Shown: in pieces, positions 4,434 to 48,727 of the stretch | Position numbering within the stretch: the first letter of the stretch is position 1 | How the letters are laid out: each line of letters begins with the position of its first letter | From: an uncultured virus (IMG/VR IMGVR_UViG_3300002140_000103) | Lineage: Duplodnaviria; Heunggongvirae; Uroviricota; Caudoviricetes | Virus record (IMG/VR): IMGVR_UViG_3300002140_000103 | Strand: one strand, 5' to 3' | Length of the DNA: 64,000 nucleotides | Position numbers and translations under genes: made by a program | Notes under the pieces: generated by a model | The model's input: the letters and a program-made list of their open reading frames with translations, nothing else | What the model was told of the DNA's origin: nothing | Databases searched by the model: none

Positions 4434-4508
4434 TTAAATAAGTTTTATTGCAGGTTTACGTTTTGTTATTTTACTATCAAAACTGCTTACACAACTTTTA
4501 GTAATATA
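4434..4508 (-). pseudogene. Relic 3' end of radical SAM gene 5935..7047
   Basis: Translates as YITKSCVSSFDSKITKRKPAIKLI*, versus the 5935..7047 C-terminus CITDSCVSSADSKIPKRKV* (14/18 aa). 4455..4508 matches 5941..5994 at 40/54 nt, ungapped. Confidence 0.8.
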
Positions 4509-4519
4509 TAAAAATACCT

Positions 4520-5935
4520 TTATTCTAAATTTTTTGCTACATAGTTTTCTATAAACTGTTTTGTTTTATCTAACAATAATTCATCCTTAAAATCTTTTTC
4601 GCGGAGTTCTAATAAATCTTTCATATTACAACGTAGTGTTGTACTAAATTCTCCCAGTTGAAATCCTGCAATTTTTCTATATTTGTAGGATCTATTATTA
4701 TTATCTTTTGCTATCTTCATTAATTTAGTATGTACTAAGTCACCATTTGTCCAGTTAACAAAGTTATCATCAGTAAACTTGTATCCGTATTTTTCATAGT
4801 TTTTTTCAAATTCACTTACCCATTGGTGTTTATTAATAACATTAATAGGATTTATATAAAGAGCCCAGTAATACCAACAACTCATATCGTTGTCTATCAT
4901 CCATTGTAAATCTATTTCTTCTTGTTCACCGGACCATCCCGGAAGTCCAACAATCATACCCATCCACCAGTTAGTTTTTCCTTTCCATCGGGTTTTTAAC
5001 TCTAATAGAAATTCTTTAGCATACTGGCCGTTCCAACCTTTTCCTATTGCTTTTGAACCTTGTGCTTGAAAACTTTCAATACCAAAGAATGCGCTGCGTA
5101 AACCCGATTCGGGTAGTAAATCTATCATTTCTGGGTATGTTGCTAACAGATCAATTCTTATATAAGCAATGTACTCTAATTCAAAAGGTAACGATTTGCT
5201 AATACGATAAATCATTTGTACTTTATCCAAACTTTCATTAAGTGTATCATCACTAAAGTAATACTTTTTAATACCAAATCTTTCATAGTTTTGTATTAGT
5301 TCAGTTCTTATATCATTTTCACTTCGAATATTAGTTCCTTTTTTACGACCAGTTAACGGAAATTGACAAAACTTACATTTAAAAATACACCCTCTACTTA
5401 TTTCAATACTTAGTGTTTCATAGGGTTGAATATAGTCGTCATTGCTATATACTTTTACAAAGTTTTGTATATCAAATTTTGGTCTTATTTCAATTTGCCT
5501 TGACAAACTATCAAGCATTGCTAATGTTTCGTCTTCGGCAAACTGATGTATACGTATCCAATCATTATCCATTATAGGAGACGTTGAATTTGATCCACCA
5601 AGAATCCATTTTATATTAGGATGAGTATTTCTAAAAACATCTCTTAAATGCTGTACCCACTTCGGATATACAATGCCGCCGACTGTTACACTATTTAACT
5701 CAATTCCGGTTACTTCCCAAAAGGTAGTACTTACTCCAAAAGCAAGAGTGGTGTTATCGATATGTTTTTTAGCAATCTCTTCTATTATATGAGGTTGTAG
5801 TTTAAAACAAAAGTCTATTACTTTTACAGTGTACCCAAACGTTCTTAGCCAAGAAGCAAGTTGATATTGGCCACCACTACGCACAGCGTAATGCTCCGGT
5901 TCTTCCATTCCGGCAAAAATAATAAAATTTGTCAT
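4520..5935 (-). CDS. Cobalamin-binding (class B-like) radical SAM protein
   Basis: N-terminal B12-type domain; EISRGCIFKCKFC, FSDDT, FFGIES and MIVGLPG motifs. Confidence 0.85.
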   Translation of the reverse strand: MTNFIIFAGMEEPEHYAVRSGGQYQLASWLRTFGYTVKVIDFCFKLQPHIIEEIAKKHIDNTTLAFGVSTTFWEVTGIELNSVTVGGIVYPKWVQHLRDVFRNTHPNIKWILGGSNSTSPIMDNDWIRIHQFAEDETLAMLDSLSRQIEIRPKFDIQNFVKVYSNDDYIQPYETLSIEISRGCIFKCKFCQFPLTGRKKGTNIRSENDIRTELIQNYERFGIKKYYFSDDTLNESLDKVQMIYRISKSLPFELEYIAYIRIDLLATYPEMIDLLPESGLRSAFFGIESFQAQGSKAIGKGWNGQYAKEFLLELKTRWKGKTNWWMGMIVGLPGWSGEQEEIDLQWMIDNDMSCWYYWALYINPINVINKHQWVSEFEKNYEKYGYKFTDDNFVNWTNGDLVHTKLMKIAKDNNNRSYKYRKIAGFQLGEFSTTLRCNMKDLLELREKDFKDELLLDKTKQFIENYVAKNLE

Positions 5936-7047
5936 TAAACTTTCCTTTTAGGTATTTTACTGTCTGCACTACTTACACAGCTATCAGTTATACAAGGCAT
6001 TGGTTTGTTAAATAGCGTAAAGCCTGTTTCGATATTACCAAGTGGAACATCGTGACAACTATAACTACGCTTTACGCTGCCGTCGGGTTCGCGTATGATA
6101 ATACCTTGATACCCAGCATTACAATGCCATCCTTTAAACTTGTTAAAGTTAAAAGCGTTAAATCGTTCTGCTTGATCCATATAGTATTTATTACCGTTAG
6201 AATCCGCCATTTCAATTTGCATATGCCACGGCACACTAGAATCGTTCTTTTCGTTAATTTCTGTAGGTACTTGAAAATTAGGTGTAGGACGCTCCGCCCA
6301 CTTACGCTTGCTTTCTGTGTACGCACGTTGCGGCATACCGTTGTGTAAACGCTTTAGGTTGTCGTCGGTGTAGCCATCTACCACTCGACTAGCTGTAGGG
6401 TCGCTTTGAGGCTTCAGCGTGACGTTTATACCTTGCTCGTGAAAGAACAATGCATTGTCCCAATCCTTCTCAAACCACTCTGGTACCATAACCATGTTGA
6501 TAGTTACTTGTACATCATGCTCTTGACAGAAAATTAACTTGTCTGCAAAATCCTGCATCTTCTCTGGTGTGCTAAGATGTTCAGTGTGCAAACTTGCTGT
6601 AATACTTGCACGGTGAAATGGCGTTACTGCTTCTACGTACTGCTCAAACCACGCCATATTGCGTGAGCAGTTTGATGTCATATGAACACTAGTGTAATTA
6701 GTATTACCAACATCATTAGCAAGATGTTTGAGAATGTCCAAGTAACCAGGGTGAAAAGTAGGCTCGCCTCCACTAAGACTAAAATGAAAGCTATTAAAAC
6801 CGTTGTCACGTGCCTGCCTTTTTATTTCGTCAATTGTTGTAAGACATAGCTCTGTTGGTCTATGGTCTTTTCGATCAGATCTAGCGTACGGCCAACAGTA
6901 ACTACATTTATAGTTACAGAAACGGCCCAATAGCCAACTAACAGTAAAAAGATCGCGGTAAAGAAGAGTCCTTTGCCCGACACTAACAATGTCGTCAAAC
7001 GGGATTTTTGTAAAATCATAATTACTCCATTTTAAATCTTCAGTCAT
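5935..7047 (-). CDS. Radical SAM protein with C-terminal twitch/SPASM-like domain
   Basis: CNYKCSYC, SGGEPT; C-terminal CNAG...GSVKRSYSC...PLGNI...CITDSC. Confidence 0.9.
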   Translation of the reverse strand: MTEDLKWSNYDFTKIPFDDIVSVGQRTLLYRDLFTVSWLLGRFCNYKCSYCWPYARSDRKDHRPTELCLTTIDEIKRQARDNGFNSFHFSLSGGEPTFHPGYLDILKHLANDVGNTNYTSVHMTSNCSRNMAWFEQYVEAVTPFHRASITASLHTEHLSTPEKMQDFADKLIFCQEHDVQVTINMVMVPEWFEKDWDNALFFHEQGINVTLKPQSDPTASRVVDGYTDDNLKRLHNGMPQRAYTESKRKWAERPTPNFQVPTEINEKNDSSVPWHMQIEMADSNGNKYYMDQAERFNAFNFNKFKGWHCNAGYQGIIIREPDGSVKRSYSCHDVPLGNIETGFTLFNKPMPCITDSCVSSADSKIPKRKV

Positions 7048-7052
7048 AGTTT

Positions 7053-7081
7053 ATTATATTACATTCGAGCTGTTATGTCAA
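7053..7081 (-). promoter_or_regulatory. Perfect-consensus sigma70 promoter, probably leaderless
   Basis: TTGACA-N17-TATAAT, then 5 nt, then the ATG at 7047. Confidence 0.88.
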
Positions 7082-7090
7082 GTTTATTTA

Positions 7091-7097
7091 ATAAATA
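7091..7097 (+). promoter_or_regulatory. Late-type ATAAATA motif upstream of the plus-strand gene
   Basis: ATAAATA ending 21 nt before the ATG at 7119; the same motif precedes structural genes. It is short and the DNA is AT-rich. Confidence 0.45.
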
Positions 7098-7118
7098 ACT
7101 TTAGAACAGGGGTTCCGT

Positions 7119-8099
7119 ATGGATATTGATGAAATAATTGAACTATGTATATTGTATCAAAAAACAAATCATGGTGGAAGGACAAGTAGTTATGACAAAT
7201 GCAGAAGAGATCTAAAACATATTTTAGAAGCTGTTCAAAAAGACATACAGCACAACTCGACTGATTTTATTACAGGAATTGCAAATTATTTTTGGCAAAA
7301 TCAAAAACGTATGGTGTTGCGTTATAAAGTCGAACTTGACATTTACCGTTACATGTTAACGTTGCTAAAATCAAAATTTACGGCAGCAGATTTTAAAAAA
7401 GCAGATGCTAGTATTGGTGTACTTTGCGAAATCGTAGAGCACGGCCCGAGGTTAAAATCAAAACAGCTACATACAAGACTCCAAGATGCTGCAAATCATG
7501 CTAATATTTGTCAACGAAACTGGGACTATTCAATAGAAATTCCAGAGAACGACATTAGTGCATTAGTTAATGTTGCTAAACATATGCCAACAAAACAAAA
7601 CTTAGAATGTTATCAGTTAGTTGTTTCTAACAATAGAGAGTTTAATAAATATTTTTATGAACTATCGTACGACGGAATTAATGATAATAATAAATGGCGT
7701 AATGGCCAAGTTAATGCACCGTTACTTTTTTTGTGGGTTTGGCCTAATGGAACATGGGAAAGAACTCATGAGATACAAAAAGATTTTAATACTGCATGTG
7801 GCATTTCATCAGGTGCAGTAGCATTGTCTGCTAACATGTTAGGATATCGTACTGGATTTTGTAGATGTTTTCAAGGCGAAACTATAACTAAAGAAATGAA
7901 TAAATTACTCAATATTAATTCAGACGGAGTATTTCTTGCACTTGGAATCGGATATCCTAATACGAAATACCAAAGTAACGAAGTTGTTTACTACGAAGGA
8001 ATATCTTATCTAGGTAGACCTAAACAAGTTAAAAAAGATAAAGGTATTGTAACAACTATTGCACGAGAAGTTAAAGATATAAAAGTATACAGAGTCTAA
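7119..8099 (+). CDS. Nitroreductase-family protein with an N-terminal helical domain
   Basis: C-terminal half has QRNWD, MPTKQN, NAPLLF, GISSGAVALSANMLGYRTGFC and LALGIGYP. It is the only credible plus-strand gene in the window. Confidence 0.78.
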   Translation: MDIDEIIELCILYQKTNHGGRTSSYDKCRRDLKHILEAVQKDIQHNSTDFITGIANYFWQNQKRMVLRYKVELDIYRYMLTLLKSKFTAADFKKADASIGVLCEIVEHGPRLKSKQLHTRLQDAANHANICQRNWDYSIEIPENDISALVNVAKHMPTKQNLECYQLVVSNNREFNKYFYELSYDGINDNNKWRNGQVNAPLLFLWVWPNGTWERTHEIQKDFNTACGISSGAVALSANMLGYRTGFCRCFQGETITKEMNKLLNINSDGVFLALGIGYPNTKYQSNEVVYYEGISYLGRPKQVKKDKGIVTTIAREVKDIKVYRV

Positions 8100-9250
8100 A
8101 TTTTAAATTCTTCTACAATATCAAACAGACTTTCATCTCTACTTTTATCTAATGCATCAGTATAATCTAAAAATTTATTGTATTTGTTACTCCAGTCTTC
8201 TGAAAACATATAATCAATAATGCCTTGTACTCTATCTAAATATACATAGGGCTGCAAACGTTGTTGTGCAAGTGTTTTTAAGTGTTCGGGCAAAACTTTA
8301 ATATTAAGCTCGTCGGGATGATTTAAAATATTAAAATAAATTTTGTGTCCATATGGTATAGCCCAATCAATAAATTTATAAAGATGCAATATATTATACA
8401 TCTGTACTGTACAGTGTATTTCAATATTAGCATTTTCTAAAGTTCTAATTGTTTCAAAGTTTTCAACAATCTTGTTCCAGTTGCTAGGGTGTCTTATATA
8501 TCTATCTAATGCACCAGTTGCGTCAATTGAACAGTTCAACTGGATTTGTTTAAACTTCTTCCATTTTTCTAAAAGATGTTTTGGAACATTTGTTAAGTTG
8601 GTGTTGTATTTTAGTTTGATATTACGAGCAGTTCCGTTTTCAATAAAGTAGTCTAACAGTCTATGCTGTTCTTTAATGATAGTAGGTTCGCCGCCTGTTA
8701 AATATATTTCTTCAACAGTGTTTGCAATACTAAACAAATTCTCCCAAGTTTTTTCAAGCTCGGGCCAATCCATACTACTTAATCTTTTGTACTCACTTTC
8801 ACTTAGCGCATCGTTAATTAAGTTCCATTCTTTAACCCACATGTTACTTGCATATGGATTACACATGCGACATTTTAGATTACACAAGTTTCCTAAGCGT
8901 AAGTCAACATATTTTATATCAAACGTTGCATCTGTTGTATACGTTTTATCTTCTTCCCACTTGTTGTTCCATGCTTGTCTTGCACTTTTAATACCAACAT
9001 CTTCTTCTTGAAAGCAGCGTTGACACATTTCAGGACGTTCGTTTGAAAGCATCTGTTTACGAATAGTAGTATAAACTTCACTGTTCCATGCATCTTCTAA
9101 ATTATCTTTGTATAACTTATATGGAACGCCGGCGGTGTTGGTTATAAAGTTTTTTCCTGGAGTCGAGTTGCAACATACTCTTAAATTGCCACTAGCATTA
9201 GTTGCAAGATGCATCCAAGGTAAGACACAGAATGTTTTAGAAGTTGACAT
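8096..9250 (-). CDS. Radical SAM protein with N-terminal twitch domain
   Basis: FCVLPW...RVCC...CQRC, then CNLKCRMC and TGGEPT. Start moved to MSTSK (9250). Confidence 0.9.
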   Translation of the reverse strand: MSTSKTFCVLPWMHLATNASGNLRVCCNSTPGKNFITNTAGVPYKLYKDNLEDAWNSEVYTTIRKQMLSNERPEMCQRCFQEEDVGIKSARQAWNNKWEEDKTYTTDATFDIKYVDLRLGNLCNLKCRMCNPYASNMWVKEWNLINDALSESEYKRLSSMDWPELEKTWENLFSIANTVEEIYLTGGEPTIIKEQHRLLDYFIENGTARNIKLKYNTNLTNVPKHLLEKWKKFKQIQLNCSIDATGALDRYIRHPSNWNKIVENFETIRTLENANIEIHCTVQMYNILHLYKFIDWAIPYGHKIYFNILNHPDELNIKVLPEHLKTLAQQRLQPYVYLDRVQGIIDYMFSEDWSNKYNKFLDYTDALDKSRDESLFDIVEEFKI

Positions 9251-10310
9251 ATTGTTGTTTCCTAAGTGTATCACGCAACTGCGTTTGTTTTTTAAATGTA
9301 GCGTTTAGTTTATCGTCGTATTTATTTTCAAGTTCTAAAATGTCTTTTAGATATTCATTTAAGTTTGGATATTTATTATACTTATTTTTTATTTTATCTC
9401 TATATTCGAGACGGTGTACCCACGGATGTAAATGAGTCGGTTCTTCGACAAATATTAGACTTATTTCCATTCCGCGATTTAGAAAATATTCTAGCGTTTC
9501 AGGAATATAAAACACATTATATGCACTTACAGTTACAAAAATCTTTAATTCAATGTCGCGTTCTAATATTAATTTGTTAAATCTATTCTCAAAGTTTTTC
9601 CATTTACCAGGCCAACGAATATATTCGTACAAGTCGCCTATTGCATCACAACTGATATATAATGTTTTCTTTTTAAATCTGTTAAGCACTTCTAACTTAT
9701 CATCACTTATTAATAATGCATTAGTTATAAAAGAAATCTCTATATTTTCTGGGTTATGTAGTGATTTTAAAAATTTCATTATATTAGGATTGGCAAACGG
9801 TTCTCCACCGGTAAATTTTAGATATTTTAAATTTTCTAATTTGCTAATTTTATCAAATGCAATGGTGACCCAGTCTTCATTGTAATGTTGGTTAGCAGTC
9901 CATAGGTCAGTGTCAGTCCATTCTAGTGCATTTTTTAAAACTTCTTGTTTTAATACAGAACTACTATGCGGTTCGCACATTCTGCAACCGAGATTACACA
10001 AATTACCTAATTTTAAATCAATACTTACAAGCTCGTACGGTTGTTTGTACATTTTTAAAGATTGTTCTCTAAGACTTTCAATACCAACGGCTTCTTTTTT
10101 CCAGCATATATTACACTCTTTTGGTTTTTTATTATCCAGTAGTTGTGATTTTATATATGTTATTTTATCTGCCTTGGTTTGCCAACTATCTTGCCAGGAG
10201 ACTGTTTTTTCATTTTGTTCCCACTTGAATTCGCAACACGGACGATAGTATCCATCCGTTGTACTTGCTGCTTGAGTCCAAGGTAGAGGACAAAAGGTTT
10301 TAGATTCCAT
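9237..10310 (-). CDS. Radical SAM protein with N-terminal twitch domain
   Basis: FCPLPW...RPCC...CNIC; CNLGCRMC; TGGEPF. Confidence 0.9.
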   Translation of the reverse strand: MESKTFCPLPWTQAASTTDGYYRPCCEFKWEQNEKTVSWQDSWQTKADKITYIKSQLLDNKKPKECNICWKKEAVGIESLREQSLKMYKQPYELVSIDLKLGNLCNLGCRMCEPHSSSVLKQEVLKNALEWTDTDLWTANQHYNEDWVTIAFDKISKLENLKYLKFTGGEPFANPNIMKFLKSLHNPENIEISFITNALLISDDKLEVLNRFKKKTLYISCDAIGDLYEYIRWPGKWKNFENRFNKLILERDIELKIFVTVSAYNVFYIPETLEYFLNRGMEISLIFVEEPTHLHPWVHRLEYRDKIKNKYNKYPNLNEYLKDILELENKYDDKLNATFKKQTQLRDTLRKQQYVNF

Positions 10311-10746
10311 TTACAATTGTTTCGTAATAGTGCTGTGGCCAACTTTTATAATAATCAGTTGTGTGAAGATACTTGCGTTTTTCTAATATGTCACTTTTAG
10401 ATTGTATAAAAATACAATTAGTAAAGTTCTGGGTAAAGAATCCAGAATCAGGAGAACTTATAAAATATAAAAGATTAGTATCTTTTTTATTATACTCTTC
10501 TATTATTTCTTTACAATTTGCAATATTGATATTTTCTCCTAACCAACAAATTCCAATATCGTATCTATTGCTATCAAACATATTTAAATTGTCGTTGACT
10601 AATACGCTAGCATTAATAAACTGTATTTTATCAGTTAGTCTGGCACGTTTGGCATAAGGACACACAGGAAATCCATCATTCCTTACAGGTTCAATTTCTT
10701 CTTGTATCCACAATACAAACTTTATTTTAAATTCTTCAAATGTCAT
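10300..10746 (-). CDS. Hypothetical protein (DUF1415-like)
   Basis: N-terminal WIQEEIE...VCPYAK resembles the DUF1415 CPF/YA motif; coupled overlaps with both neighbours. Confidence 0.5.
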   Translation of the reverse strand: MTFEEFKIKFVLWIQEEIEPVRNDGFPVCPYAKRARLTDKIQFINASVLVNDNLNMFDSNRYDIGICWLGENINIANCKEIIEEYNKKDTNLLYFISSPDSGFFTQNFTNCIFIQSKSDILEKRKYLHTTDYYKSWPQHYYETIVNGI

Positions 10747-11513: not shown

Positions 11514-12439
11514 CCTAGCTTTTCTTTCATTTTTTGATAAAACACGCCGTTTCTTGAATCTAATAACGGAGTTCTAATATTAATTCTATTTGTAGTTTTA
11601 TCTCTATGGAACTCGTTCCATTCAAAGTCTCCTTGTGCAACATGTATAGTATGAGATGGGGTCAATCCAAAGTAATCACATACTGTTGCTTGATGTTCTT
11701 TATATATGTTTGCACAATTATCTGGTGAAAATTCTTTCATTAATAGCAATCCTGCAAATATGTTAGTATGTATTCCGTGTCGCCATTCGTACTGTAGTGC
11801 TAACGGACCATGATTCCACTTACTAAAACATATTCCAGATCTCCATTGCCCAGTTTGCAATCCTTTTGTTGTACTAAATGTAACTACCTTGATACAATCA
11901 TGATCTAAAGACCAACTAAGATCGTAACATGTTCCAAACCATGCACAGTCAATTAAAACTGGAATATTTAACTTATTACAAGTTTCCATAATTTCTTCAT
12001 ATAGTGGATGTACTTCGCCTGTACCACTAAATGGTATACTAAGAATAACTGCATCGCCGAATTCTAACGGTCTGTCGTCAATAAAGTCATCCCAATTCCA
12101 TGCATATGCATCTCTATTGTAAGGGTATTCACCTCTTAACATTCTCGGTGTCCAGTTATTTCTTGCACATTCGTAATGGAACCAATCTAAAGTTTGTGTT
12201 GCTCCTAGACTTACATATCGATGCGGAAAAGTTTCTAATCCAGTAATCTTAACAGTTTCTGAAGATTCTATCCATTTAGGATAAAATTCTAAAAATTCAT
12301 CTTGTACATCGTAGTCGCCATTAAACCATCCGTTTTCCTTTATGTAGTTAGATAAAAATTTTGTACATTCGGAAACTTTAGCAGAGTTGCCAGTTTTTCC
12401 TAAATAGTCTCCATACAAGGATTCAAACTTTTTACTCAT
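11510..12439 (-). CDS. PLP-dependent fold-type-I enzyme
   Basis: GEYPY, PFSG, LIDCAW, FSTTKG...RSG; paralog of 2577..3350. Start moved to MSKKF (12439). Confidence 0.75.
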   Translation of the reverse strand: MSKKFESLYGDYLGKTGNSAKVSECTKFLSNYIKENGWFNGDYDVQDEFLEFYPKWIESSETVKITGLETFPHRYVSLGATQTLDWFHYECARNNWTPRMLRGEYPYNRDAYAWNWDDFIDDRPLEFGDAVILSIPFSGTGEVHPLYEEIMETCNKLNIPVLIDCAWFGTCYDLSWSLDHDCIKVVTFSTTKGLQTGQWRSGICFSKWNHGPLALQYEWRHGIHTNIFAGLLLMKEFSPDNCANIYKEHQATVCDYFGLTPSHTIHVAQGDFEWNEFHRDKTTNRINIRTPLLDSRNGVFYQKMKEKLG

Positions 12440-17098: not shown

Positions 17099-18498
17099 TT
17101 AAAAATTCCTTTCATTTCAGGAAATGTTTCAGCAAATGTAATTCCTCTTTGCTTATCGCACAACTCTAGAAATTCCTTCATCTCAGGTAAACGTACACTC
17201 CAGTCTTCTGATTCCATAAACTGTAACATACCCATTAACCTATCTACGCCGTAACTAGCAGCTCTCCATGTTTCAAAATCAACCTTGCCTTTATGCCAGC
17301 TAGGAATTCCTTTTTCCCAATTAGCTTCCCACCACGGTATAAATTCTTCATACTTTTTACGGCATTCTTCTTTAAACCATTTAGGAAGTACTTTGACATT
17401 AAGATGTGGAGGATGGTAAACAAAGTGATAGTTTACCCCGCCTGCGCCAAAAGGCCACATATTAATTTTCTTAAAGCCTTGTTCTAATTTCCATTTAATA
17501 AGATCGGGTATGTAATATATGTTTAGTGCTTGTACTGCACATGCAATTGTGATTTCAGTATTGTTTGGAGTTTGCGTGTCTAGTATATGAAATACTTCTT
17601 CCATACGGTTCCATTTACTAGGATAACGAATGTAATCGTTCATTTGCTCAATGCTGTCTATTGAATAATGGAAACGTACTAATTTAAAATGACTCCATAA
17701 CTCGAATAAATCTTCTCTCCATTCAACACCGTTTGAGTTGTAACGTATTTCTAAGTCTTTTGCATAACCCATCTTAATGGCATATTCAAGTATTTCGTAA
17801 TGTTCTTCAATAATAAGACTTTCACCGCCAGCAAAGTAAATTTGTTGCATACTGGGCATCTGTTCGTAAAATTGTTTCCAAAATGTAGGATTTTGCTTAT
17901 GCCAGTTGTAACTACTGCCGTTGTAACTGCCTTTGTTTTCCCATTGCATTGTTTCTTTAAGAGATTCATTTTTTACAGCAGGAAAGATTGATTTGTAATC
18001 TTTAATCCAACCGCTACTATCATGCGGTGAACACATTACACAAGCTAACTGACACTTTGTGCCAAAACGTAAATCAATGTATGCTAGTTGTGGCGGAACG
18101 CGGCCGTCTTCCTTTGTGTCTGCAAGTATTTTATCAACATCAACACGCTGACTCCAATATTCTGTTTCCCACATACGTTTACTATTATGCCCTGCTGCTT
18201 CTTCTTTATAACATTTTATACAGCTAGGCGGCTTTTCTCCTGCAAGCATTTGCTTACGCACATTCCTCATATATGTGCTGTTCCATGCTGTTTCAAAGTC
18301 GCTAACATTTAAATTGCTAGGTTTACCATCTTCTGTTTTAAGAATACCAACTTGTCCTCCGTGTACTTTATCATTTGTTGCACCAACACTGCTTGCATTA
18401 GCTGTACAACATACACGCATACTACCATCTGGGCGTGTACTTAGATGTACCCAAGGCAATAAGCAAAACGTATCAGATGGCATCTTTTTATCAGTCAT
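17095..18498 (-). CDS. Radical SAM protein with N-terminal twitch domain
   Basis: FCLLPW...RVCC...CIKC; CQLACVMC; AGGES. Likely start is MTDKK (18498) rather than 18618. Confidence 0.9.
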   Translation of the reverse strand: MTDKKMPSDTFCLLPWVHLSTRPDGSMRVCCTANASSVGATNDKVHGGQVGILKTEDGKPSNLNVSDFETAWNSTYMRNVRKQMLAGEKPPSCIKCYKEEAAGHNSKRMWETEYWSQRVDVDKILADTKEDGRVPPQLAYIDLRFGTKCQLACVMCSPHDSSGWIKDYKSIFPAVKNESLKETMQWENKGSYNGSSYNWHKQNPTFWKQFYEQMPSMQQIYFAGGESLIIEEHYEILEYAIKMGYAKDLEIRYNSNGVEWREDLFELWSHFKLVRFHYSIDSIEQMNDYIRYPSKWNRMEEVFHILDTQTPNNTEITIACAVQALNIYYIPDLIKWKLEQGFKKINMWPFGAGGVNYHFVYHPPHLNVKVLPKWFKEECRKKYEEFIPWWEANWEKGIPSWHKGKVDFETWRAASYGVDRLMGMLQFMESEDWSVRLPEMKEFLELCDKQRGITFAETFPEMKGIFN

Positions 18499-18571
18499 TT
18501 GTCGGCCTTCTATCTTTCTTTTCTTTAATTTTTTTCTCTTGTATGCTTGCTTTGTTGCAACTTTAAACAAC

Positions 18572-19891
18572 TTATAATCCATCGTACCAGTAATCGGACA
18601 ATTCTGGAAAATAGTCAAATATATTGTTATTGTTTATTCTATCGCACATATTGAAAAAATTACAAACGTTTTTTGTAAGTTTAGGATTGTTGTAATCTGA
18701 ATTTTTTAAAAAGTTATAACAATTAGTTGCATGATGAAGATAGTCTTCAACAAAATAACGGTCAGTTGAATAATCACCAACATGTGCTATTGTCCATTCG
18801 ATATCAGCTAATGCCTTTAATTTTAAGTCATCAGGTAAATGGATTGACGAAGTAGGATTTTTAAGTACTAAACTTGAATGAAAACCAAGATCGTTCTCTA
18901 TCCAGTCAAACATTATGTCTTTCCATCGCAAGGCAGAAAACATATTAAATGTTACAGTTCCAACTATATATCTTCTACTTTTACCTTTAAAATAATGACT
19001 AAATTTTTTAATATTATCTGTTAGAAGTTCTATGTTACCTTCGGCTCTAAAATAATTATATGTCAAAAAAGATGTATCAATACTTACACGTACTATTAAT
19101 TTATTAAACTTATCCCAGTATTCAAAATATTTTTCGATGTTGTTAATGTTGAAATTTGAATTATAATCAAGATCTTGTTTATATGAAGTTTTAGATGTAT
19201 TAACTAGATAGTCTAGCCATTCTGTATGTTCAGGGGCTAATAATGGCTCGCCACCGGAAAATTGTATTAACTTAGTTGAACTTAAAAGTTCTTTTATATC
19301 TTCTTTATATTTAGATTTACTAGTCAAACCGTTTTTAAAATGATTATTAAAATTGTCAAACGGCACATCAGTGTCACCGTTTTCAATTCCTACTACATGA
19401 TCGTATATGTCAAAGTTTTCTTTGACTGATAGTTTTTCAATCCACTTAGTAGACGAATCAGGCCCGCAGTGCATACATCTTAGATTACATAATAGACTCG
19501 GTCTCATTTCAATACGCACAAAATTTTCAATTTTAGCAGTCAATGGATCTTGTTTAATTCTTGAAATTAATGTATCTTTTTCTTTTTCATCAAGTCTAAG
19601 ATTATAATCTTTAAAAAAATCCATTCTTGGAGATATAGCGTTATGCGATTCAGCATACCAACAAGACTGGCAGTTTTTATGCTGTTTTCCTGTATACAAT
19701 GCATCTCTTATTTCTTTTGCTTTGTCACTATTAAACACATCAATAAATCGTTCTTCTTTCCAGTTACCTATGTTTTGTTGACCGCGATAACATGTTCTAA
19801 CATCGCCTACTTGATCAAGGTCGGTTCCAATATACGGAGCAAAACAAAAGGTTTCAGGATTTAATCCAAGTTTTTTTAATTGTTGTTTCAT
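18572..19891 (-). CDS. Radical SAM protein with N-terminal twitch domain
   Basis: FCFAPY...RTCY...CQSC; CNLRCMHC; SGGEPL. Confidence 0.9.
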   Translation of the reverse strand: MKQQLKKLGLNPETFCFAPYIGTDLDQVGDVRTCYRGQQNIGNWKEERFIDVFNSDKAKEIRDALYTGKQHKNCQSCWYAESHNAISPRMDFFKDYNLRLDEKEKDTLISRIKQDPLTAKIENFVRIEMRPSLLCNLRCMHCGPDSSTKWIEKLSVKENFDIYDHVVGIENGDTDVPFDNFNNHFKNGLTSKSKYKEDIKELLSSTKLIQFSGGEPLLAPEHTEWLDYLVNTSKTSYKQDLDYNSNFNINNIEKYFEYWDKFNKLIVRVSIDTSFLTYNYFRAEGNIELLTDNIKKFSHYFKGKSRRYIVGTVTFNMFSALRWKDIMFDWIENDLGFHSSLVLKNPTSSIHLPDDLKLKALADIEWTIAHVGDYSTDRYFVEDYLHHATNCYNFLKNSDYNNPKLTKNVCNFFNMCDRINNNNIFDYFPELSDYWYDGL

Positions 19892-19898
19892 TATTATG

Positions 19899-19905
19899 TA
19901 TTTAT
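19899..19905 (-). promoter_or_regulatory. Late-type ATAAATA motif
   Basis: ATAAATA 7 nt upstream of the ATG at 19891; no SD. Confidence 0.45.
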
Positions 19906-19912
19906 TGACACT

Positions 19913-19947
19913 TTATATAAACTGCGCACTAAATGGATCAAACTCGG
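19913..19947 (-). pseudogene. Relic 3' end of radical SAM gene 22426..23493
   Basis: Translates as EFDPFSAQFI*, versus EFDPFGEQFK*. 27/35 nt identical to 22426..22460, ungapped, with the stop at the same position. Confidence 0.72.
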
Positions 19948-20669
19948 TCCGAGTCTGACTTTCTGTAAATTACTTCAACCCAGTCAGTCCTTCCGTTTAG
20001 AGGATTTTTACTAATATGTGATATATCATATAGTTCAAAGTTATACGGTATAATAAGTTTTTCAAATTCTAAAAAACTAATACGTGTTTCGTATAAATCG
20101 TATAAATTTAATTCGCTAACTATTATGTCAGTGTTATTTAAAATGGACGACGCACCTTCTAAAATTAAAAGTTCAGCGCCCTGTACATCCATTTTTAAAA
20201 TATCGACCTTTGTAATATTTGAATCTTTTAAACAATTATCAAGCGTATCTACAGCAACCGTTTCAGTAGTATTATTAAAGAAATTATGATGTCCTTCTTC
20301 GGGGCGATTGACTGCTATTGAATCAGTACTAAGTTTGTTAAGATTAAAAAAACTACTCAACATTATTTGATGATGATTAACATTAAACTCACTAGTTCCT
20401 TGAAAATTTGATAATGCAATATTATATAATGTTACATCAGTATAGTGTTGTGTATTTTCTTTTAAATAATTAAACGACTGCAATACAGGCTCAAAACTAT
20501 GTATAATTGCCAAAGGCCATAGTGATTTAAAATAGTCAACACTTTGTCCTATATTTGCACCGGCATCAATAATAACAGGATTTTTAGTATGTACTAAACT
20601 TTTTAATAAATTACCTTTATTAAATTTTTCTTTAGAAATTTCACTACGAGTATGTTCCGGAGTATACAT
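19938..20669 (-). CDS. FkbM-family methyltransferase
   Basis: IIDAGANIGQ, HSFEP, VDTLD and DILKMDVQGAELLILEGA. Confidence 0.92.
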   Translation of the reverse strand: MYTPEHTRSEISKEKFNKGNLLKSLVHTKNPVIIDAGANIGQSVDYFKSLWPLAIIHSFEPVLQSFNYLKENTQHYTDVTLYNIALSNFQGTSEFNVNHHQIMLSSFFNLNKLSTDSIAVNRPEEGHHNFFNNTTETVAVDTLDNCLKDSNITKVDILKMDVQGAELLILEGASSILNNTDIIVSELNLYDLYETRISFLEFEKLIIPYNFELYDISHISKNPLNGRTDWVEVIYRKSDSDRV

Positions 20670-21190
20670 TAATAAAACTCCTTTTCTGAAAGCATCAACA
20701 ACAGTGTACGTCTATTTTCTGTACATTCCAAACTATCAAAATCGTGCCACGTATGATCATTTCTAATAAATCCAGAGCCACGGTTTGGTAACCAATTGGT
20801 AGTTTTGACGTATGTAGTTGTGTCTTTTTCTTTAAATAATTGTGTGCCACTGCCTGTGTTAGATATAGCTAATACAAATGTCATAACTTTTAATGGATTA
20901 TCATTGTGTATTTTATTATATGCCCAGCCAGGCTTAATAACATCAAATTCTATAGCAGGATACAAATTTGTTATATCGTCAATACCTGCAATACTAGCAA
21001 TTTTGTGTATATACGGAACTAATAGATTATACATTTCGGGGAAGTTATTTGAACGAACCTGTATGTTATTACGATCTCCAGTAACTGATATATTTTTACT
21101 AAATTCATTAACCCGATCAAACGCATCAATATCTAATAAATTAGTAATTGTAAAATGCTTCCACGGATCATTGTAAAATTCTATTTTCAT
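20669..21190 (-). CDS. 2OG-Fe(II) oxygenase
   Basis: DPWKH, IHND, GSGT, TWHD and RRTL. Start at MKIEF (21190). Confidence 0.72.
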   Translation of the reverse strand: MKIEFYNDPWKHFTITNLLDIDAFDRVNEFSKNISVTGDRNNIQVRSNNFPEMYNLLVPYIHKIASIAGIDDITNLYPAIEFDVIKPGWAYNKIHNDNPLKVMTFVLAISNTGSGTQLFKEKDTTTYVKTTNWLPNRGSGFIRNDHTWHDFDSLECTENRRTLLLMLSEKEFY

Positions 21191-21732
21191 TATACTAGTA
21201 CTTCCTTGTTTTTCCAATTTGAATTTACATAATTCACAATAACACTTGTTCTATCAGATGTTAATGGCGATAATGCATGTATTTCTGTGCCTGTATTATT
21301 AAAAAACCACCCACAGTTAACATGTGTATCAGTGTTAATATTATTAAAATTTGTACTAATATCACTATCACTTAAATAAATTTGTAATGTAAAAAGTTTA
21401 GCTGCATCATCTGTGTGTCCTTCTAGCCAACTTGCTTTGCTGTCTTTACACAATTCGATACGTGTTCTGCACGAACTATAATCAGTTCCTGTTATATTAG
21501 AAAATAACTGCTTTGTTTTGATACTATCAAAATAAGAAGAAAGTTCTTGATAACTACTGTTATTAATTTGATGTGTCCAAATTCGAGAAATTCTATCAGT
21601 TCTCTTACCTGACAATAATGCATACTCGTATTTTTCTGCACACGTAGTTAATTGTAACAGTTTCGCCTTATCAAAAAAATTAACAAATTTAAAAATTTTA
21701 AATCCAACATCTGCTTCTGTATAATTAAACAT
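21190..21732 (-). CDS. 2OG-Fe(II) oxygenase
   Basis: WLEGHTD...LQIYL...EIHAL...RTSVIVNY. Start at MFNY (21732). Confidence 0.72.
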   Translation of the reverse strand: MFNYTEADVGFKIFKFVNFFDKAKLLQLTTCAEKYEYALLSGKRTDRISRIWTHQINNSSYQELSSYFDSIKTKQLFSNITGTDYSSCRTRIELCKDSKASWLEGHTDDAAKLFTLQIYLSDSDISTNFNNINTDTHVNCGWFFNNTGTEIHALSPLTSDRTSVIVNYVNSNWKNKEVLV

Positions 21733-22429
21733 CAAACATCCATTTCGTTTTTCTTTTATATAATACGCAACTGTCATTAACATACACTGCTTTATTTTTT
21801 AATTCAAATTTAACTATAGGATCAAGTTCAAGAGGTAATGCCCACGAATTATTCTTAATGTTTATACACTCTTTATACACAATTTCCTGTTCCGCAGCGT
21901 TTCTGATACTTCGAGGATGAGTAATTGCAGTACTTGATAGAAAATAAAGATCGTTGCAATTAAACTCTGCAGTTGATATATCATTGAAAGATACATCATT
22001 AAAATCGGATATTACAGTGTTACTGTAATCAGTAATTATTACGTCTACCTTATCAGTATATTGCCCAAGAAAGGACAATCTAGTTTGTCCTGGGTGTAAT
22101 GCAACTTTTTTATTCTTAAAGTAGTGAATATTTAAAGGATGCAGTAGTTTACATCCTTTTTTTAGATCATCTAATATTCGAAAAAATGAATATAATTTAA
22201 CTATACTGTCAGTATCAATTGTAGCATTATTACTATAAACTAACGTACTATGTTTAAATACAGAATGTATATCACCAGCTATTTTCTTTTGAATATTTCT
22301 TTTTAAAAAAATATTATTAGTGTCTTCTAACGTTAATTTAGCAATATATGTATTTGTATTATGCATACTATCAAACTCGTTAGTTAGATTTACGAAATGC
22401 AAATAATCATTTAATTTAATTATGCTCAT
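21725..22429 (-). CDS. Hypothetical protein
   Basis: 234-aa ORF coupled to its neighbours; contains an HPGQTR motif of unknown meaning. Confidence 0.7.
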   Translation of the reverse strand: MSIIKLNDYLHFVNLTNEFDSMHNTNTYIAKLTLEDTNNIFLKRNIQKKIAGDIHSVFKHSTLVYSNNATIDTDSIVKLYSFFRILDDLKKGCKLLHPLNIHYFKNKKVALHPGQTRLSFLGQYTDKVDVIITDYSNTVISDFNDVSFNDISTAEFNCNDLYFLSSTAITHPRSIRNAAEQEIVYKECINIKNNSWALPLELDPIVKFELKNKAVYVNDSCVLYKRKTKWMFDV

Positions 22430-23493
22430 TTAAATTGTTCCCCAAATGGATCAAATTCGGCGCCGCATTTCATTGAGCATACTTTTAATTTGCCAGAGGC
22501 ACAACTTGGTTTACTCCAGCTATCTTGTATTCTATCAAATATACCAGTAGCAAATACTGACTCTAATCCGTTACGTGCATCTAACACACTTTTATTAGGA
22601 ATAAAATCCCATATCTGTTCTACTTTAGGATCTTTATGCCACCATTTATACATACGGCCCGCAGTCCAACAACACGGTAATGCCAGACCTTCTGCTGTAA
22701 TAAACAAACTGTTGTCTTTTTTAACTTTACAAATAATAGGTGCAGCATCATAGTATGCATCCATACTTCCGTATTTGTTAATAATAACGTCTTGTTTTTT
22801 AAGTGCAGCATTTTGATATTTTTCATCTGGCTTTTTAAGTTCTGTTGTTTCGTTGCCTTTACGATCAACTGCTTGATGCTTGTCTTTAGGCTCTACCTTT
22901 GATGTAACAAATCTACCAGTTTTTTTAGCAACAAATTTTTCAAATCCCCATTTACTAGCAAGTGCTTCTGCTTCTTCTACTTGATGTTGATTGTGTTCAA
23001 ATATTAAAAAGTCCCAACGTGCTCTGCCGCCTGCTTTAATAAACGCTTTTATGTTGCGCTCTACATTAGTCCAACTAACGCCTTGACGATATATATGATT
23101 GGTGTCTTTTAATCCGTCAACACTAAAAATAACTGCTCCATTGCTGCCGATAGTTTTAGCAAGTGCATGCCACCATATTGTGTTTTTAGCACCAGCATTA
23201 GTGTTCATGCTTAACCACATTTTAGGATTGTGATCTCTAAAATATGTAAAGATTTCTAAAGTATCTCGTGCAATAATAGGATCGCCTAAGTTTCCGCACA
23301 TATACATAGTATCTAACTGTGAAATAAATTCTGGCAGGAATATCTTTTTACAATCTTCAATAGTAAGTTCATCTAAATTAATGTGCGGATTGACACCTTT
23401 ACCGTTCATATTACGATCACACATAGGACAACTAGCTTGACAGTTTTGCGTAACTTCTAAGTGTATACTTCTAATATCTTCGTACTTATACAT
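22426..23493 (-). CDS. Radical SAM protein with C-terminal twitch-like domain
   Basis: CQASCPMC, CGNLGDP, FSVDG; C-terminal C...G...PCCW...CSMKC. Confidence 0.9.
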   Translation of the reverse strand: MYKYEDIRSIHLEVTQNCQASCPMCDRNMNGKGVNPHINLDELTIEDCKKIFLPEFISQLDTMYMCGNLGDPIIARDTLEIFTYFRDHNPKMWLSMNTNAGAKNTIWWHALAKTIGSNGAVIFSVDGLKDTNHIYRQGVSWTNVERNIKAFIKAGGRARWDFLIFEHNQHQVEEAEALASKWGFEKFVAKKTGRFVTSKVEPKDKHQAVDRKGNETTELKKPDEKYQNAALKKQDVIINKYGSMDAYYDAAPIICKVKKDNSLFITAEGLALPCCWTAGRMYKWWHKDPKVEQIWDFIPNKSVLDARNGLESVFATGIFDRIQDSWSKPSCASGKLKVCSMKCGAEFDPFGEQFK

Positions 23494-23755
23494 CCATTAC
23501 CAACTTTACATCTTTGCCAGGGCCGCCAACACTTGGCAGGAAAAAGTATTCTGCCATATACCACTTGATTACTGCACGATACCATTTTTGACTGTCGTGA
23601 TGTGCTTGTTTATTAAACTGGTGTATATTATTATTAGTGGTCTGCATTGTAGCAAGTGCTCTTGCACTTTCAAGTTGCAATCTTCTAACTGAAAACTGAT
23701 CTAACAATACTTCAATACTTTCGTCTCTAAGACGATCACTGTTATTTAAATCCAA
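23486..23755 (-). CDS. Small hypothetical protein
   Basis: 89 aa, fits the operon; its TTG start lies inside the methyltransferase relic. Confidence 0.6.
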   Translation of the reverse strand: MDLNNSDRLRDESIEVLLDQFSVRRLQLESARALATMQTTNNNIHQFNKQAHHDSQKWYRAVIKWYMAEYFFLPSVGGPGKDVKLVMDV

Positions 23756-23849
23756 TTCTCATAAACCTTGTGTACTTTTCTAGTTCTAGACTTCCTTTAT
23801 ATAATACATTAGTTAGAGGAGTTTGTCTACTAAAATCTTCAAGATTCAT
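23742..23849 (-). pseudogene. Relic 3' end of methyltransferase 24541..25386, still open as a 35-aa mini-ORF
   Basis: MNLEDFSRQTPLTNVLYKGSLELEKYTRFMRIGFK*, versus ...DLNNFSRQTPLNNVLYEGSLELEKYTRFMRIGFK*. Its ATG overlaps the sulfotransferase stop (ATGA). Confidence 0.9.
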
Positions 23850-24544
23850 TTTAGTTTTATACGACCGTTATTATTATTTAAATACGGGTGTGACAATACA
23901 GTTAACATTTTTTCACCCCCTATCTGCCTAAGTCTGTTATAATTAATTAAAATGCTATCTTTTGGCTGAGATTTTTTTATATTATTTTTTTTAAATGTCA
24001 TTGATTGAGTATTAGATAATTTTAAATTCTTATAATCTTTATCATAGTCAAATTTTAAATCTTCGTAATAAACAATTTCATTTAACAATTTATTTTTGTG
24101 ATTCCATTCAGCAAGATCTATAATACTTTGGTATCGACTTTCTAATGTAGATAAAAAATAAGTTTCATCTATAACAAATTTTTCTAAATAAGGAGTATCC
24201 GATGCTTGCCATAAATTAGTTTTTTCTGCAATTAGATTACTTATAGTTGATTCAACTAAATCTTGTCTTAATATAGATATTATATACCAATTGTTATTTA
24301 AAAACGCAGTTTTGTCAGCATCCGATAATCTTTTGTTGATGTTAGAAAAATGGTCTTTACACACGTTATTAGGAGTTCTTTTAATTGTTTTAATAATACG
24401 TTTTATATATTTTTGAGAATAGCTTTCCATATGTTCGTAATTAAACGGCTCGGGGTATTTTTTAAATTTTATATTAGAATTTACAAACATATTTAGTAAA
24501 TATGTGCTACCTGTTCTAGACTGAGAAACAATTAAAATATTCAC
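23846..24544 (-). CDS. Sulfotransferase-like protein (P-loop, Stf0-like)
   Basis: SQSRTGSTYL (5'-PSB loop), EPF, LRQDL...IS (3'-PB) and YYEDL. Confidence 0.72.
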   Translation of the reverse strand: MNILIVSQSRTGSTYLLNMFVNSNIKFKKYPEPFNYEHMESYSQKYIKRIIKTIKRTPNNVCKDHFSNINKRLSDADKTAFLNNNWYIISILRQDLVESTISNLIAEKTNLWQASDTPYLEKFVIDETYFLSTLESRYQSIIDLAEWNHKNKLLNEIVYYEDLKFDYDKDYKNLKLSNTQSMTFKKNNIKKSQPKDSILINYNRLRQIGGEKMLTVLSHPYLNNNNGRIKLK

Positions 24545-25386
24545 TTAAATCCGATCCTCATAAATCTTGTATACTTCTCTAGTTCTAGACTTCCTTCATA
24601 TAATACATTATTTAGAGGAGTTTGTCTACTGAAATTGTTAAGATCTGCACTGCAATTTACGTGTTCGTTAACTTCAAAGTAGTTATTACTTTGCAATACT
24701 ATTAGTACGTTATAAGGAAGTTTGTCATACCATTCTGCAAAATTTGGAATGTGTTCACAACTTGTATTAATAATAGTATTAGGCTTGTCTGTTATCGGAT
24801 AACTCATTCTGTTGTTAGCATTACTCCAATATTGCCAAGTATGTTCATTATAGTCTATATCCATAATGTCTTGAGTTAATGATTTAAAACGCCATTGATC
24901 AGTAAACCACGGAGCATTAAATACTTCTGCAATATTAACACAAGTAGGATCAATATCAAAACTTCTAATTTTATCTATTCTAAGATTTTTTTCAAATAAC
25001 ATTGTAGCAAGTGTAGCATACCATCCTGCACAAAGAAATACTGTTCCTAAATAAGGATTAATTCTTTTAAGTTCTTTAACTAGCCATAGTTTACTTTGTA
25101 GCTGTCCTCTACTAAAACAGTCATTCCATATTTCTGTTTTATTTACAAAAAAGTTTTTAAATGCTGCGGTAAATTGTGTATCAACATAGCGATCTAACAT
25201 AGGCCATAGTTTCCAAGTATTATCTTCCATAATCAATTTGCGAAGATCATCTTTATTTTCATCTGTAATTATTCTAAAGATACTATGTAAATCGTGATCA
25301 ATATATGCTCTACGCAAATCAGTTAACTTACTATTAGTTGGATATAATAACTCAAATCTATCCAATAGTTCAAATGTTTGAAGCAT
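24541..25386 (-). CDS. Class I SAM-dependent methyltransferase-like protein
   Basis: SKLWL, LCAGWY, RSFDIDP, INTSCEH and LQSNN. Confidence 0.7.
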   Translation of the reverse strand: MLQTFELLDRFELLYPTNSKLTDLRRAYIDHDLHSIFRIITDENKDDLRKLIMEDNTWKLWPMLDRYVDTQFTAAFKNFFVNKTEIWNDCFSRGQLQSKLWLVKELKRINPYLGTVFLCAGWYATLATMLFEKNLRIDKIRSFDIDPTCVNIAEVFNAPWFTDQWRFKSLTQDIMDIDYNEHTWQYWSNANNRMSYPITDKPNTIINTSCEHIPNFAEWYDKLPYNVLIVLQSNNYFEVNEHVNCSADLNNFSRQTPLNNVLYEGSLELEKYTRFMRIGFK

Positions 25387-35151: not shown

Positions 35152-35160
35152 ATTGCGTTT

Positions 35161-48720: not shown

Positions 48721-48727
48721 TATTTAT
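48721..48727 (-). promoter_or_regulatory. Late-type ATAAATA motif
   Basis: TAAATAAATA overlapping the giant gene's stop, upstream of the ATG at 48702. Confidence 0.45.

Follow-up and report, generated by a model that had tools for sequence, protein, structure and literature searches.

Orphan copies of gene 3' ends downstream of cargo genes in a radical SAM island of an uncultured tailed virus

The uncultured virus IMGVR_UViG_3300002140_000103 (IMG/VR; Caudoviricetes) has a genome of 146,632 bp. Here we describe bases 58418-122417 of it, a stretch of 64,000 nucleotides (nt) that we call the window; positions below are those of the window unless they are given as genome positions. At three places in the window a conserved gene with a complete 3' end (X1, X2 or X3) is followed by one or more cargo genes and then by an orphan, diverged copy of the last codons of the same gene, which we call a relic. 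An earlier note, made by a model from the sequence alone, had reported this pattern and had read it as the trace of cassettes that carry a replacement 3' end and integrate by a single crossover. The relics are real, and we think it fairly probable that they are scars of 3'-end displacement, left by recombination between diverged co-infecting T4-like phages.

Three conserved genes, their cargoes and the orphan ends

The window holds baseplate genes, tail fibre genes and an open reading frame (ORF) of 4639 amino acids (aa). Adjoining the tail and baseplate genes is a 40-kb run of minus-strand genes that contains many paralogues with radical SAM and SPASM domains (Pfam). X1, X2 and X3, their cargoes and the relics are all encoded on the minus strand, as listed here by case (GC, fraction of guanine plus cytosine).

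Case 1
5935..7047, minus strand: X1, a highly conserved radical SAM gene of 370 aa (ORF, Pfam; 597 relatives in viral contigs)
5941-5992, minus strand: resident copy of repeat 1
4520..5935, minus strand: cargo 1, a radical SAM gene of 471 aa (Pfam Radical_SAM; B12 domain not detected)
4434..4508, minus strand: relic 1, the final codons of an ITKSC-type X1 allele in decayed form (YITKSCVSSFDSKITKRKPAIKLI and stop; profile E 1.5e-6)

Case 2
22426..23493, minus strand: X2, a conserved radical SAM gene of 355 aa (ORF, Pfam)
22426-22461, minus strand: resident copy of repeat 2, the last 12 codons of X2
19938..22429, minus strand: cargo 2, four ORFs (21725-22429, 21190-21783, 20669-21217 and 19938-20669; GC 0.291)
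19938-20669, minus strand: FkbM-type methyltransferase gene of cargo 2, its last codons and stop made of relic 2 sequence
19913..19948, minus strand: relic 2, from a diverged X2 allele, comprising its last 11 codons and stop (EFDPFSAQFI and stop; profile E 5.4e-6)

Case 3
24541..25386, minus strand: X3, a conserved gene of 281 aa and unknown function (ORF; no Pfam or PHROG match; 2573 homologues at E<=1e-30)
24541-24645, minus strand: resident copy of repeat 3, the last 35 codons of X3
23846..24544, minus strand: cargo 3 (S), an ORF of 232 aa, putative sulfotransferase-like (GC 0.246)
23742..23846, minus strand: relic 3, from an A-type X3 allele whose last 34 codons and stop were displaced (self-comparison, profile and match to protein P0002; the allele types are defined below)
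23486..23755, minus strand: D, an ORF of 89 aa that adjoins or overlaps the X3 end in empty-site relatives

The repeat of case 3 is the most extensive, with positions 23746-23845 and 24545-24644 being 89% identical over 100 nt without gaps (self-BLAST E 8e-28). In case 1, positions 4455-4506 and 5941-5992 are 75% identical over 52 nt (genome-wide self-BLAST E 0.003), and in case 2 a hand count gives 27 identical nt of 36 between 19913-19948 and 22426-22461. The longest identical runs inside the repeat pairs are 19, 9 and 12 nt (the 12 counted by hand, in case 2). When the last 105 nt of each called gene were compared with each intergenic gap in both orientations (11,786 comparisons), cases 3, 1 and 2 scored 78, 26 and 19 and took ranks 1, 2 and 3-4, the score of case 2 being tied with that of one apparently chance match. 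A tblastn comparison of C-termini, as proposed in the earlier note, recovers case 3 (E 7.5e-20) and case 1 (E 1.4e-6); case 2 (E 0.006) is not significant by such self-comparison alone.

We used nhmmer profiles built solely from the 3' ends of relatives (19 sequences for the X3 end, 57 for the X1 end and 21 for the X2 end), and searched them over the whole 146,632-bp genome. The X3-end profile matches relic 3 (E 9e-18, 61.7 bits) better than it matches the resident end (E 5e-13, 46.4 bits), and its next match has an E of 1. The X1-end profile finds the resident end (E 2e-17) and relic 1 (E 1.5e-6), the next match being at 2.8, and the X2-end profile finds the resident end (E 3e-17) and relic 2 (E 5.4e-6), the next being at 0.09. 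Every end profile has exactly two significant matches genome-wide, the resident end and the relic. Because profiles made from relatives alone match just these two places, the reality of the relics is settled, and all three gene-cargo-orphan arrangements are confirmed at the positions where the earlier note had placed them.

The stretch 19500-25500, which covers cases 2 and 3 and leaves relic 1 outside, is present in 20 of the 24 sequencing runs listed, from six studies. We examined contigs of four runs for bridging of the junctions in this stretch; three of the four are flagged as possible sources of this DNA, and run X20 is not. D, relic 3, S and X3 are spanned together with 0 differences by contigs of X17 (23404-25500) and X8 (23499-25500), and relic 2 and cargo 2 are spanned with 0 differences by contigs of X17 (19565-22626), X8 (17975-22241) and X20 (19093-20052). 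The assembly chimerism that the earlier note had named as a danger to its reading is thereby answered for these two cases, relic 1 lying beyond the stretch covered. Run X12 leaves parts of 19500-25500 without cover, which proves nothing. Five small low-depth joints in the run contigs do not correspond to the repeats, and no joint skipping a cargo, as the excision suggested in the earlier note would give, was seen among the contigs of the four runs, which cannot reveal rare forms.

That the similarities are due to chance, or the junctions to chimeric assembly, is a negligible prospect: case 2 does tie with chance matches by self-comparison, and two metagenome contigs (L115 and L116) terminate within repeat 3, so that this repeat breaks assemblies, but the relics have profile E of 5e-6 to 9e-18 with nothing else genome-wide below 0.09, cases 2 and 3 are spanned without a difference by contigs drawn from several studies and runs, and the metagenome scaffold L114 bears the same structure.

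The earlier note had seen no integrase or transposase nearby, and this holds for the families searched. No integrase, transposase or homing endonuclease family was found in 29 ORFs (Pfam) or in 21 ORFs and 15 further scans (PHROGs), many ORFs being without any match. The cargoes have no match to HNH, GIY-YIG or LAGLIDADG, and cargoes 1 and 3 are single enzyme-like genes. Promoter-like sites (20, versus 16.4 +/- 3.8 in shuffled sequence) and terminator-like sites (54 versus 41.6 +/- 6.8) are not enriched and give no signal at the relics. In base composition, the cargoes are poorer in GC than the genes beside them: S has a GC of 0.246 versus 0.299 in X3 and 0.367 in D; the corresponding values are 0.32 in cargo 1 versus 0.408 in X1, and 0.291 in cargo 2 versus 0.356 in X2.

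A fourth, shorter case lies outside the window, where genome positions 36050-36085 and 36687-36722 are 86% identical over 36 nt (self-BLAST E 0.003). This repeat is made up of the final six codons of one gene (34974-36068) plus the first three of the next gene, and its copies flank a gene of 194 aa. The genes that come after the two copies both start with MSL and are otherwise unrelated.

Relatives of the three loci and the allelic origin of relic 3

In GenBank phage records neither the DNA of 19000-26000 nor the proteins of X1 and S have a match, whereas similar sequences occur in hundreds of uncultured viral contigs. Among these relatives there are empty sites, as the earlier note had anticipated. 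D comes directly after X3 in 13 of 20 distinct X3 3' alleles of related contigs, the two genes overlapping in most, and in six loci (L016, L017, L018, L020, L021 and L117) the next SPASM/radical SAM gene begins no more than about 20 nt beyond X2.

Relic 3 retains the junction with D (ATTGGATTTAAATAA, then D), and the D frame opens at a TTG inside the relic, 14 nt before the X3 stop. The motif ATTGG at this place is kept by all 13 X3 alleles that have D adjacent, and by relic 3. The resident X3 end (ATCGGATTTAAGTGA) is without TTG; it carries ATCGG and AAGTGA, the latter yielding the GTG start of S. Each of the two ends thus suits the gene behind it. Relic 3 contains no stop and no frameshift, and a mini-ORF of 35 codons (23742-23849) runs over it, its ATG overlapping the stop of S. 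Relic and resident end differ at 13 nt in 34 codons, with 7 codons changed synonymously and 5 non-synonymously (P 0.0065 versus random substitution), and 29 of the 34 residues are alike. Over the last 17 codons there are 6 synonymous and 0 non-synonymous changes (P about 1e-4). Since the divergence is biased towards synonymous change, the two copies must have diverged as working gene ends and not through decay in place.

A working gene with the end that is found in relic 3 is present in other lineages. Among the X3 homologues in a large protein collection, P0002, P0124 and P0125 (306 aa; 8 contigs in total) end in DLEDFSRQTPLTNVLYKGSLELEKYTRFMRIGFK, which relic 3 matches at 33 of 34 residues and the resident end at 30 of 34. 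Relatives whose X3 ends with the relic allele, another expectation of the earlier note, are therefore at hand in this case. We call this recipient (P0002-type) form of X3 the A-type, and the window or donor form the B-type. The bodies of the P0002-group proteins are 79% identical to the X3 of the window, and codons -44 to -36 also differ from those of the window; these genes are therefore not deletion products of a window-like genome.

The homologues P0001-P0120 fall into length classes of about 280, 305, 323, 348, 375, 390 and 481 aa, which are due to 1 to about 9 copies of an N-terminal tandem repeat of ~24 residues (..ELRKAVxExNLHSIFRL..). The X3 of the window has one copy and P0002 has two.

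A second group of homologues is chimeric. P0121, P0122 and P0123, known from 11 contigs (two sources; maximum length 56.7 kb), combine a P0002-type body with window-type last 44 codons. They share one 90% cluster with the P0002 group, and P0122 differs from P0002 at 8 residues, a number equal to that separating the two end types. The same chimera is seen at the nucleotide level in L114, a short metagenome scaffold that is 100% identical to window 23402-24741 (D, relic 3, S and the final 200 nt of X3). Beyond 24741 it is 11.9% divergent (69 of 579 nt), and its translated X3 body is that of P0002 with 1 difference. As the chimeric X3 in L114 is joined to S and the relic, the replacement 3' end travels with the cargo. 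Case 3 thus comprises three haplotype classes: the recipient-type gene, the chimera with cargo and relic, and the donor-type gene with cargo and relic, which is the form in the window. The claim of the earlier note that the cassette brings a replacement 3' end from a diverged allele is borne out here by the P0002 group, the chimeras and L114, and reaches cases 1 and 2 by analogy; its companion claim, that the target gene is never disrupted, agrees with the intact X3 and its donor end.

The junctions of case 3 can be placed closely. The first codon of relic 3 is -35, immediately behind the stop of S, and from codon -33 on the relic is of recipient (A) type. The switch of type in the chimeric X3 lies between codons -67 and -44, where both X3 types share residues, and is outside the relic. 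Relic 3 lacks recipient codons -44 to -36; S runs straight into codon -35 of the recipient allele, and the two share no sequence ahead of the joint.

S itself has a match to Stf0 at E 0.12, below the cut-off, and language-model neighbours that include sulfotransferase clusters at 0.96-0.97; the label of sulfotransferase in the earlier note depends on these two results. Among the related loci fetched, S occurs only in contigs that are identical to the window or of its genotype (L114, L115), apart from a 32% match in L106/L107. Relatives of S are absent from phage records, and 13 pattern matches in viral contigs included none that is related. A back-translated pattern for the lineage-specific X3 end gave 0 matches in viral contigs. 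In a search for the context of P0002, 38 viral-contig loci reached at best 68% identity and so offered no A-type context, and genome contigs offered none.

In case 1, the compared X1 alleles share the C-terminal motif SCVSSADSKIPKRK. Relic 1 carries the common ITKSC variant of these alleles, has three changes at residues that are invariant among them, and is followed by a spacer of 65 nt. Of 80 loci, 5 have cargo 1 directly after X1 without a relic, and there the TAATG junction is that of the window. The earlier note had called cargo 1 a B12 radical SAM gene, of which the radical SAM part is supported by Pfam and the B12 part is not. A pattern search of viral contigs for the tail allele of relic 1 gave 0 matches, and a relic scan of 76 X1-centred loci (5944 comparisons) gave a best score of 21 and nothing convincing.

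X1 is itself a mosaic, in which L048 is the closest relative over the first 300 nt (96% identical; next best 86%) and is succeeded further along by L046 and then L097 (84-89%); this comparison with relatives gave no near-identical donor for the 3' end of X1. Just upstream of X1, at 7053-7081 on the minus strand, is a perfect sigma-70 consensus (TTGACA-17 nt-TATAAT, 12/12), contained in the 71-nt gap between X1 and a divergent nitroreductase-like gene. The gene after relic 1 (3343-4368) has a paralogue in the island at 13750-14823 (61.5% over 551 nt); both belong to phrog_25854, of unknown function.

In case 2, relic 2 agrees with the X2 end of L117 (EFDPFSAQFIKS and stop) at 10 of 10 residues. 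Cargo 2 is absent from the fetched loci, save for one contig identical to the window. Its first ORF (21725-22429) gives weak leads to ParB_N-like and HNH-containing clusters (feature score 0.89, TM about 0.4, a poor model); these predicted likenesses, too weak for naming, would be the sole hint of a nuclease in any cargo. The radical SAM/SPASM gene downstream of relic 2 (18821-19892) has an inverted paralogue 70 kb away, at genome positions 7437-8493, the two being 62% identical over 1073 nt with homology that stops at the gene start. The usual domain order in such proteins is radical SAM first and SPASM after. In the paralogues at 8096-9274, 12432-13757, 17095-18618 and 18572-19891 the SPASM domain is N-terminal to the radical SAM domain (e.g. 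residues 16-87 before 127-279).

Relics are not common among the relatives. When the end profiles were run over 145 distinct related loci (1.42 Mb), an orphan second match was obtained only in the L024 lineage and in L114; the second match in L006 is a full paralogue. In L024/L025 a different cargo comes after X3, and then the last 45 nt of X3 in near-identical form, fused in frame to a truncated X2-like (radical SAM) fragment; the gene that follows in L024 has its frame opening at the TTG used by D. Relics are therefore rare, and the word recurrent, used in the earlier note, holds for this genome only, with one other lineage among the 145 loci. A 34-nt repeat in L022/L033 (33 of 34 identical; 213-246 and 936-969, about 720 nt apart) was considered and set aside, as it is intergenic and not the relic of a gene end; it may be a regulatory motif.

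Proposed recombination between co-infecting phages, and the alternatives

We propose that the relics arose as follows. The donor genome would carry the conserved gene X and then the cargo, and the recipient its own X allele followed directly by a different downstream gene. Donor DNA would pair homologously within or upstream of X, which would account for one homologous crossover, while the other donor end, just past the cargo, would join illegitimately 11-35 codons before the end of the recipient X. The product would be an intact X with the donor 3' end, the cargo, the orphan recipient 3' end and the recipient downstream gene. Such a process would be homology-facilitated illegitimate recombination or, equivalently, unequal crossover, for which the phage recombination machinery would be enough and no integrase would be needed. 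The joins that survive may be explained by the start signals of the downstream gene, which sit inside the end of X: viable joins would have to lie upstream of these signals within the X end, so that a relic would be forced. Later spread could then occur through ordinary double homologous crossover, with X on one side and the relic and downstream gene on the other.

In case 3 we see a relic of allelic origin, empty sites, X3 chimeras and a geometry unlike that of a Campbell-type insertion, and it is by analogy with this case that the same mechanism is suggested for cases 1 and 2. Since the joint of case 3 is identical in the window and in L114, it probably arose once, with the left endpoints reshuffled later by ordinary recombination. 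To judge from its sequence, the relic of L024/L025, fused to a truncated fragment, independently supports an illegitimate joint, and the stop of the case 2 methyltransferase within relic 2 is counted among such joints. The relics would also seem to differ in age, relic 3 being pristine, relic 1 being changed at three invariant residues and relic 2 being short.

Several observations weigh against this proposal. No related locus shows the arrangement expected of the donor, in which S comes after X3 and no relic follows, and we infer both the adjacency of the A-type alleles to D and their nucleotide identity to the relic. Neither a chimera nor a near-identical relative turned up for cases 1 and 2. 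In all three cases about 12 nt at most separate the junction from the stop of the final gene of the cargo, which is not expected of random illegitimate joins without later trimming or selection. L114, taken alone, could be an assembly chimera, although the members of the protein cluster, which are known from proteins alone, argue otherwise. Finally, extra DNA between X3, D and X2 in relatives (18 rows, about 12 distinct sites) has junction scores of 7-11, similar to those of interior controls, and no relic, so that most gains would leave no scar or lose it.

The closest alternative is a Campbell-type insertion, in which part of the X 3' end and the cargo sit on a small circle that undergoes a single homologous crossover in the X end and so duplicates that part of X. 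It predicts the same gene order, circles of this kind have been proposed for Rhs tips (PMC2935791), and T4-type phages have been described as forming and packaging mini-circles through short flanking repeats without an integrase (PMC2839356). Once the repeats are present, a circle could also form and carry the cargo onward. We nevertheless judge it an improbable origin, as the geometry of case 3 does not fit the single-crossover integration put forward in the earlier note. A circle should leave a relic that is of donor type up to the crossover and of recipient type after it, with the resident end switching at the same point, but relic 3 is of recipient type from codon -33 of 35 while the chimeras switch at -67 to -44, outside the relic, and recipient codons -44 to -36 are absent from it. 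The fusion of the L024 relic to a truncated gene fragment and the scarcity of homology, the repeats sharing at most 19 identical bases in a row, speak against a circle as well. A weaker point is the lack of any cargo-skipping joint in the run contigs, since contigs drop rare forms.

The repeats may instead be functional elements under selection, either a junction module for translation initiation or regulation or, in case 3, a translated peptide of 35 residues. The shared TTG at which the D frame and the gene after the L024 relic open, the 35-codon ORF over relic 3 and the freedom of this relic from stops and frameshifts all point in this direction. As an account of the repeats this is nonetheless very unlikely, for D needs only the last 14 nt or so and not 100, relic 1 is altered at invariant residues and then followed by its 65-nt spacer, promoter-like and terminator-like sites are no commoner than in shuffles, and the 145 related loci are without second copies apart from one lineage. 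Selection of this kind would explain the retention of a relic and not its origin, and is compatible with 3'-end displacement.

Tandem duplications at short homologies are known to be made by T4-type phages. The end of X could accordingly have been duplicated in situ, by slippage or by accordion-like amplification, with the downstream copy decaying and the cargo being unrelated to the event. Relic 1, with its three changes at otherwise invariant residues, does look decayed. This explanation is nonetheless hardly credible: the divergence of relic 3 is synonymous-biased (P 1e-4 over the last 17 codons) and the relic equals the working allele of another lineage at 33 of 34 residues, relic 2 equals the L117 allele at 10 of 10 residues, and in the fourth case, outside the window, the gene between the repeats is unrelated to the gene after them.

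Displacement of the 3' end may have a further consequence, on which we are more doubtful. Since the relic would be a perfect copy of the end and junction of the recipient lineage, the block of donor end and cargo would have, on both flanks, homology to any genome of that lineage, and the relic might thereby turn the cargo into a self-spreading unit that needs no integrase. The A-body/B-end chimeras on 11 contigs suggest that the donor end and cargo can sweep through diverged backgrounds by double crossover; we regard the self-spreading unit as a whole as possible, with the odds against it.

Relation to known systems and significance

The nearest parallels to 3'-end displacement come from bacterial toxin loci. 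In Rhs, contact-dependent inhibition (CDI) and type VI secretion system (T6SS) loci, a new tip with its immunity gene displaces the old tip and orphans are left behind, circular intermediates having been proposed for Rhs (Jackson et al. 2009, PMC2935791). For T6SS effectors and Rhs arrays, homology-facilitated illegitimate recombination was put forward, and a shifted effector 3' end noted (Kirchberger et al. 2017, PMC5361080). As far as these accounts go, the likeness is close: the reading frame stays intact, a 3' end is acquired together with one or more linked downstream genes, and the old end is orphaned downstream, while the new end comes from a diverged allele with a homologous anchor on the 5' side, an illegitimate join or a circle is proposed for the other side, and no dedicated recombinase is involved. 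Of these features, the laterally acquired alternative end on an intact gene is seen in the chimeric X3 of case 3, and the old end kept as an orphan is seen in all three relics. The setting differs, being a lytic T4-like phage here and a bacterial chromosome there. Moreover, variable toxin domains are displaced in those loci, whereas here it is the tails of biosynthetic genes, which are conserved and near-synonymous (in case 3, 29 of 34 residues are alike). In place of an immunity gene, the cargo consists of one enzyme gene or a block of four genes, and there is one orphan at each site and no array.

Homology-facilitated illegitimate recombination, as described for DNA imported by cells (transformable bacteria and conjugation), likewise has a homology anchor on one side and a join without homology at the other (PMC3240628), and the combination of a one-sided homologous crossover with a non-homologous join is found in case 3. 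The exchange considered here would differ from that description in taking place between co-infecting phage genomes, and in that the join lies upstream of the end of the anchor, so that recipient sequence is duplicated and not deleted. Among phages, the PeSL cassettes of T4-type coliphages use short flanking repeats to move ORFs without an integrase, and mini-circles form (Arbiol et al. 2010, PMC2839356). They resemble our cases in that novel genes of T4-like phages, located in plastic regions and flanked by short direct repeats, are gained and lost through phage recombination, free of integrases. The repeats described there are intergenic, consist of a promoter and a stem-loop and occur many times per genome, whereas those reported here are coding 3' ends, each specific to one gene.

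The far border of each cargo also recalls a different class of element, in that the target stays intact through a replacement end and a partial copy of the end marks the border. Integrase-mediated islands and prophages insert in the 3' end of a gene or transfer RNA gene and restore it. In the present cases no integrase was detected, the repeats are 75-89% alike without an identical core, and the cargoes consist of one to four genes.

As to the phages concerned, they are T4-like and probably belong to the pelagimyophages. Pelagimyophages have a large variable island beside the giant VrlC gene, and close genomes differ in it by radical SAM cassettes (Zaragoza-Solas et al. 2020, PMC7029224). In these SAR11 myophages the host recognition cluster is bounded by VrlC and the neck gene gp14. 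By analogy, the window looks like such an island, and like the host recognition cluster of these T4-like marine phages it combines a large variable region with tail fibre genes and a giant gene. In the passages of that paper which deal with the radical SAM cassettes, the differences are read as gradual change, without a mechanism at the level of junctions and without relics. In the window, positions 48724-62643 form the single ORF of 4639 aa, flanked by the tail fibre genes on one side and a baseplate wedge gene on the other, and this ORF may be the counterpart of VrlC.

We found no description of displaced 3'-end relics in phage genomes in the literature searched, which is not proof of their absence. 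The relics extend 3'-end displacement from bacterial toxin loci to biosynthetic genes in an abundant, uncultured group of marine phages. The manner in which strictly lytic phages acquire genes in their variable islands without the help of integrases has mostly been inferred from gene content, whereas here the junctions themselves keep evidence, and in case 3 the endpoints of recombination can be read to within a few codons from the three haplotype classes. A simple search rule follows, in which conserved gene ends are made into profiles and a second match is sought downstream; applied to metagenomes, it could find recent gains and the lineages that donated them. If the donor end and its cargo do form a self-spreading unit, the cargo could occasionally loop out, repeated rounds would make the radical SAM island of marine T4-like phages grow and would reshuffle it, and relics could be used to date gene gains genome-wide in uncultured phages and to trace their donors.

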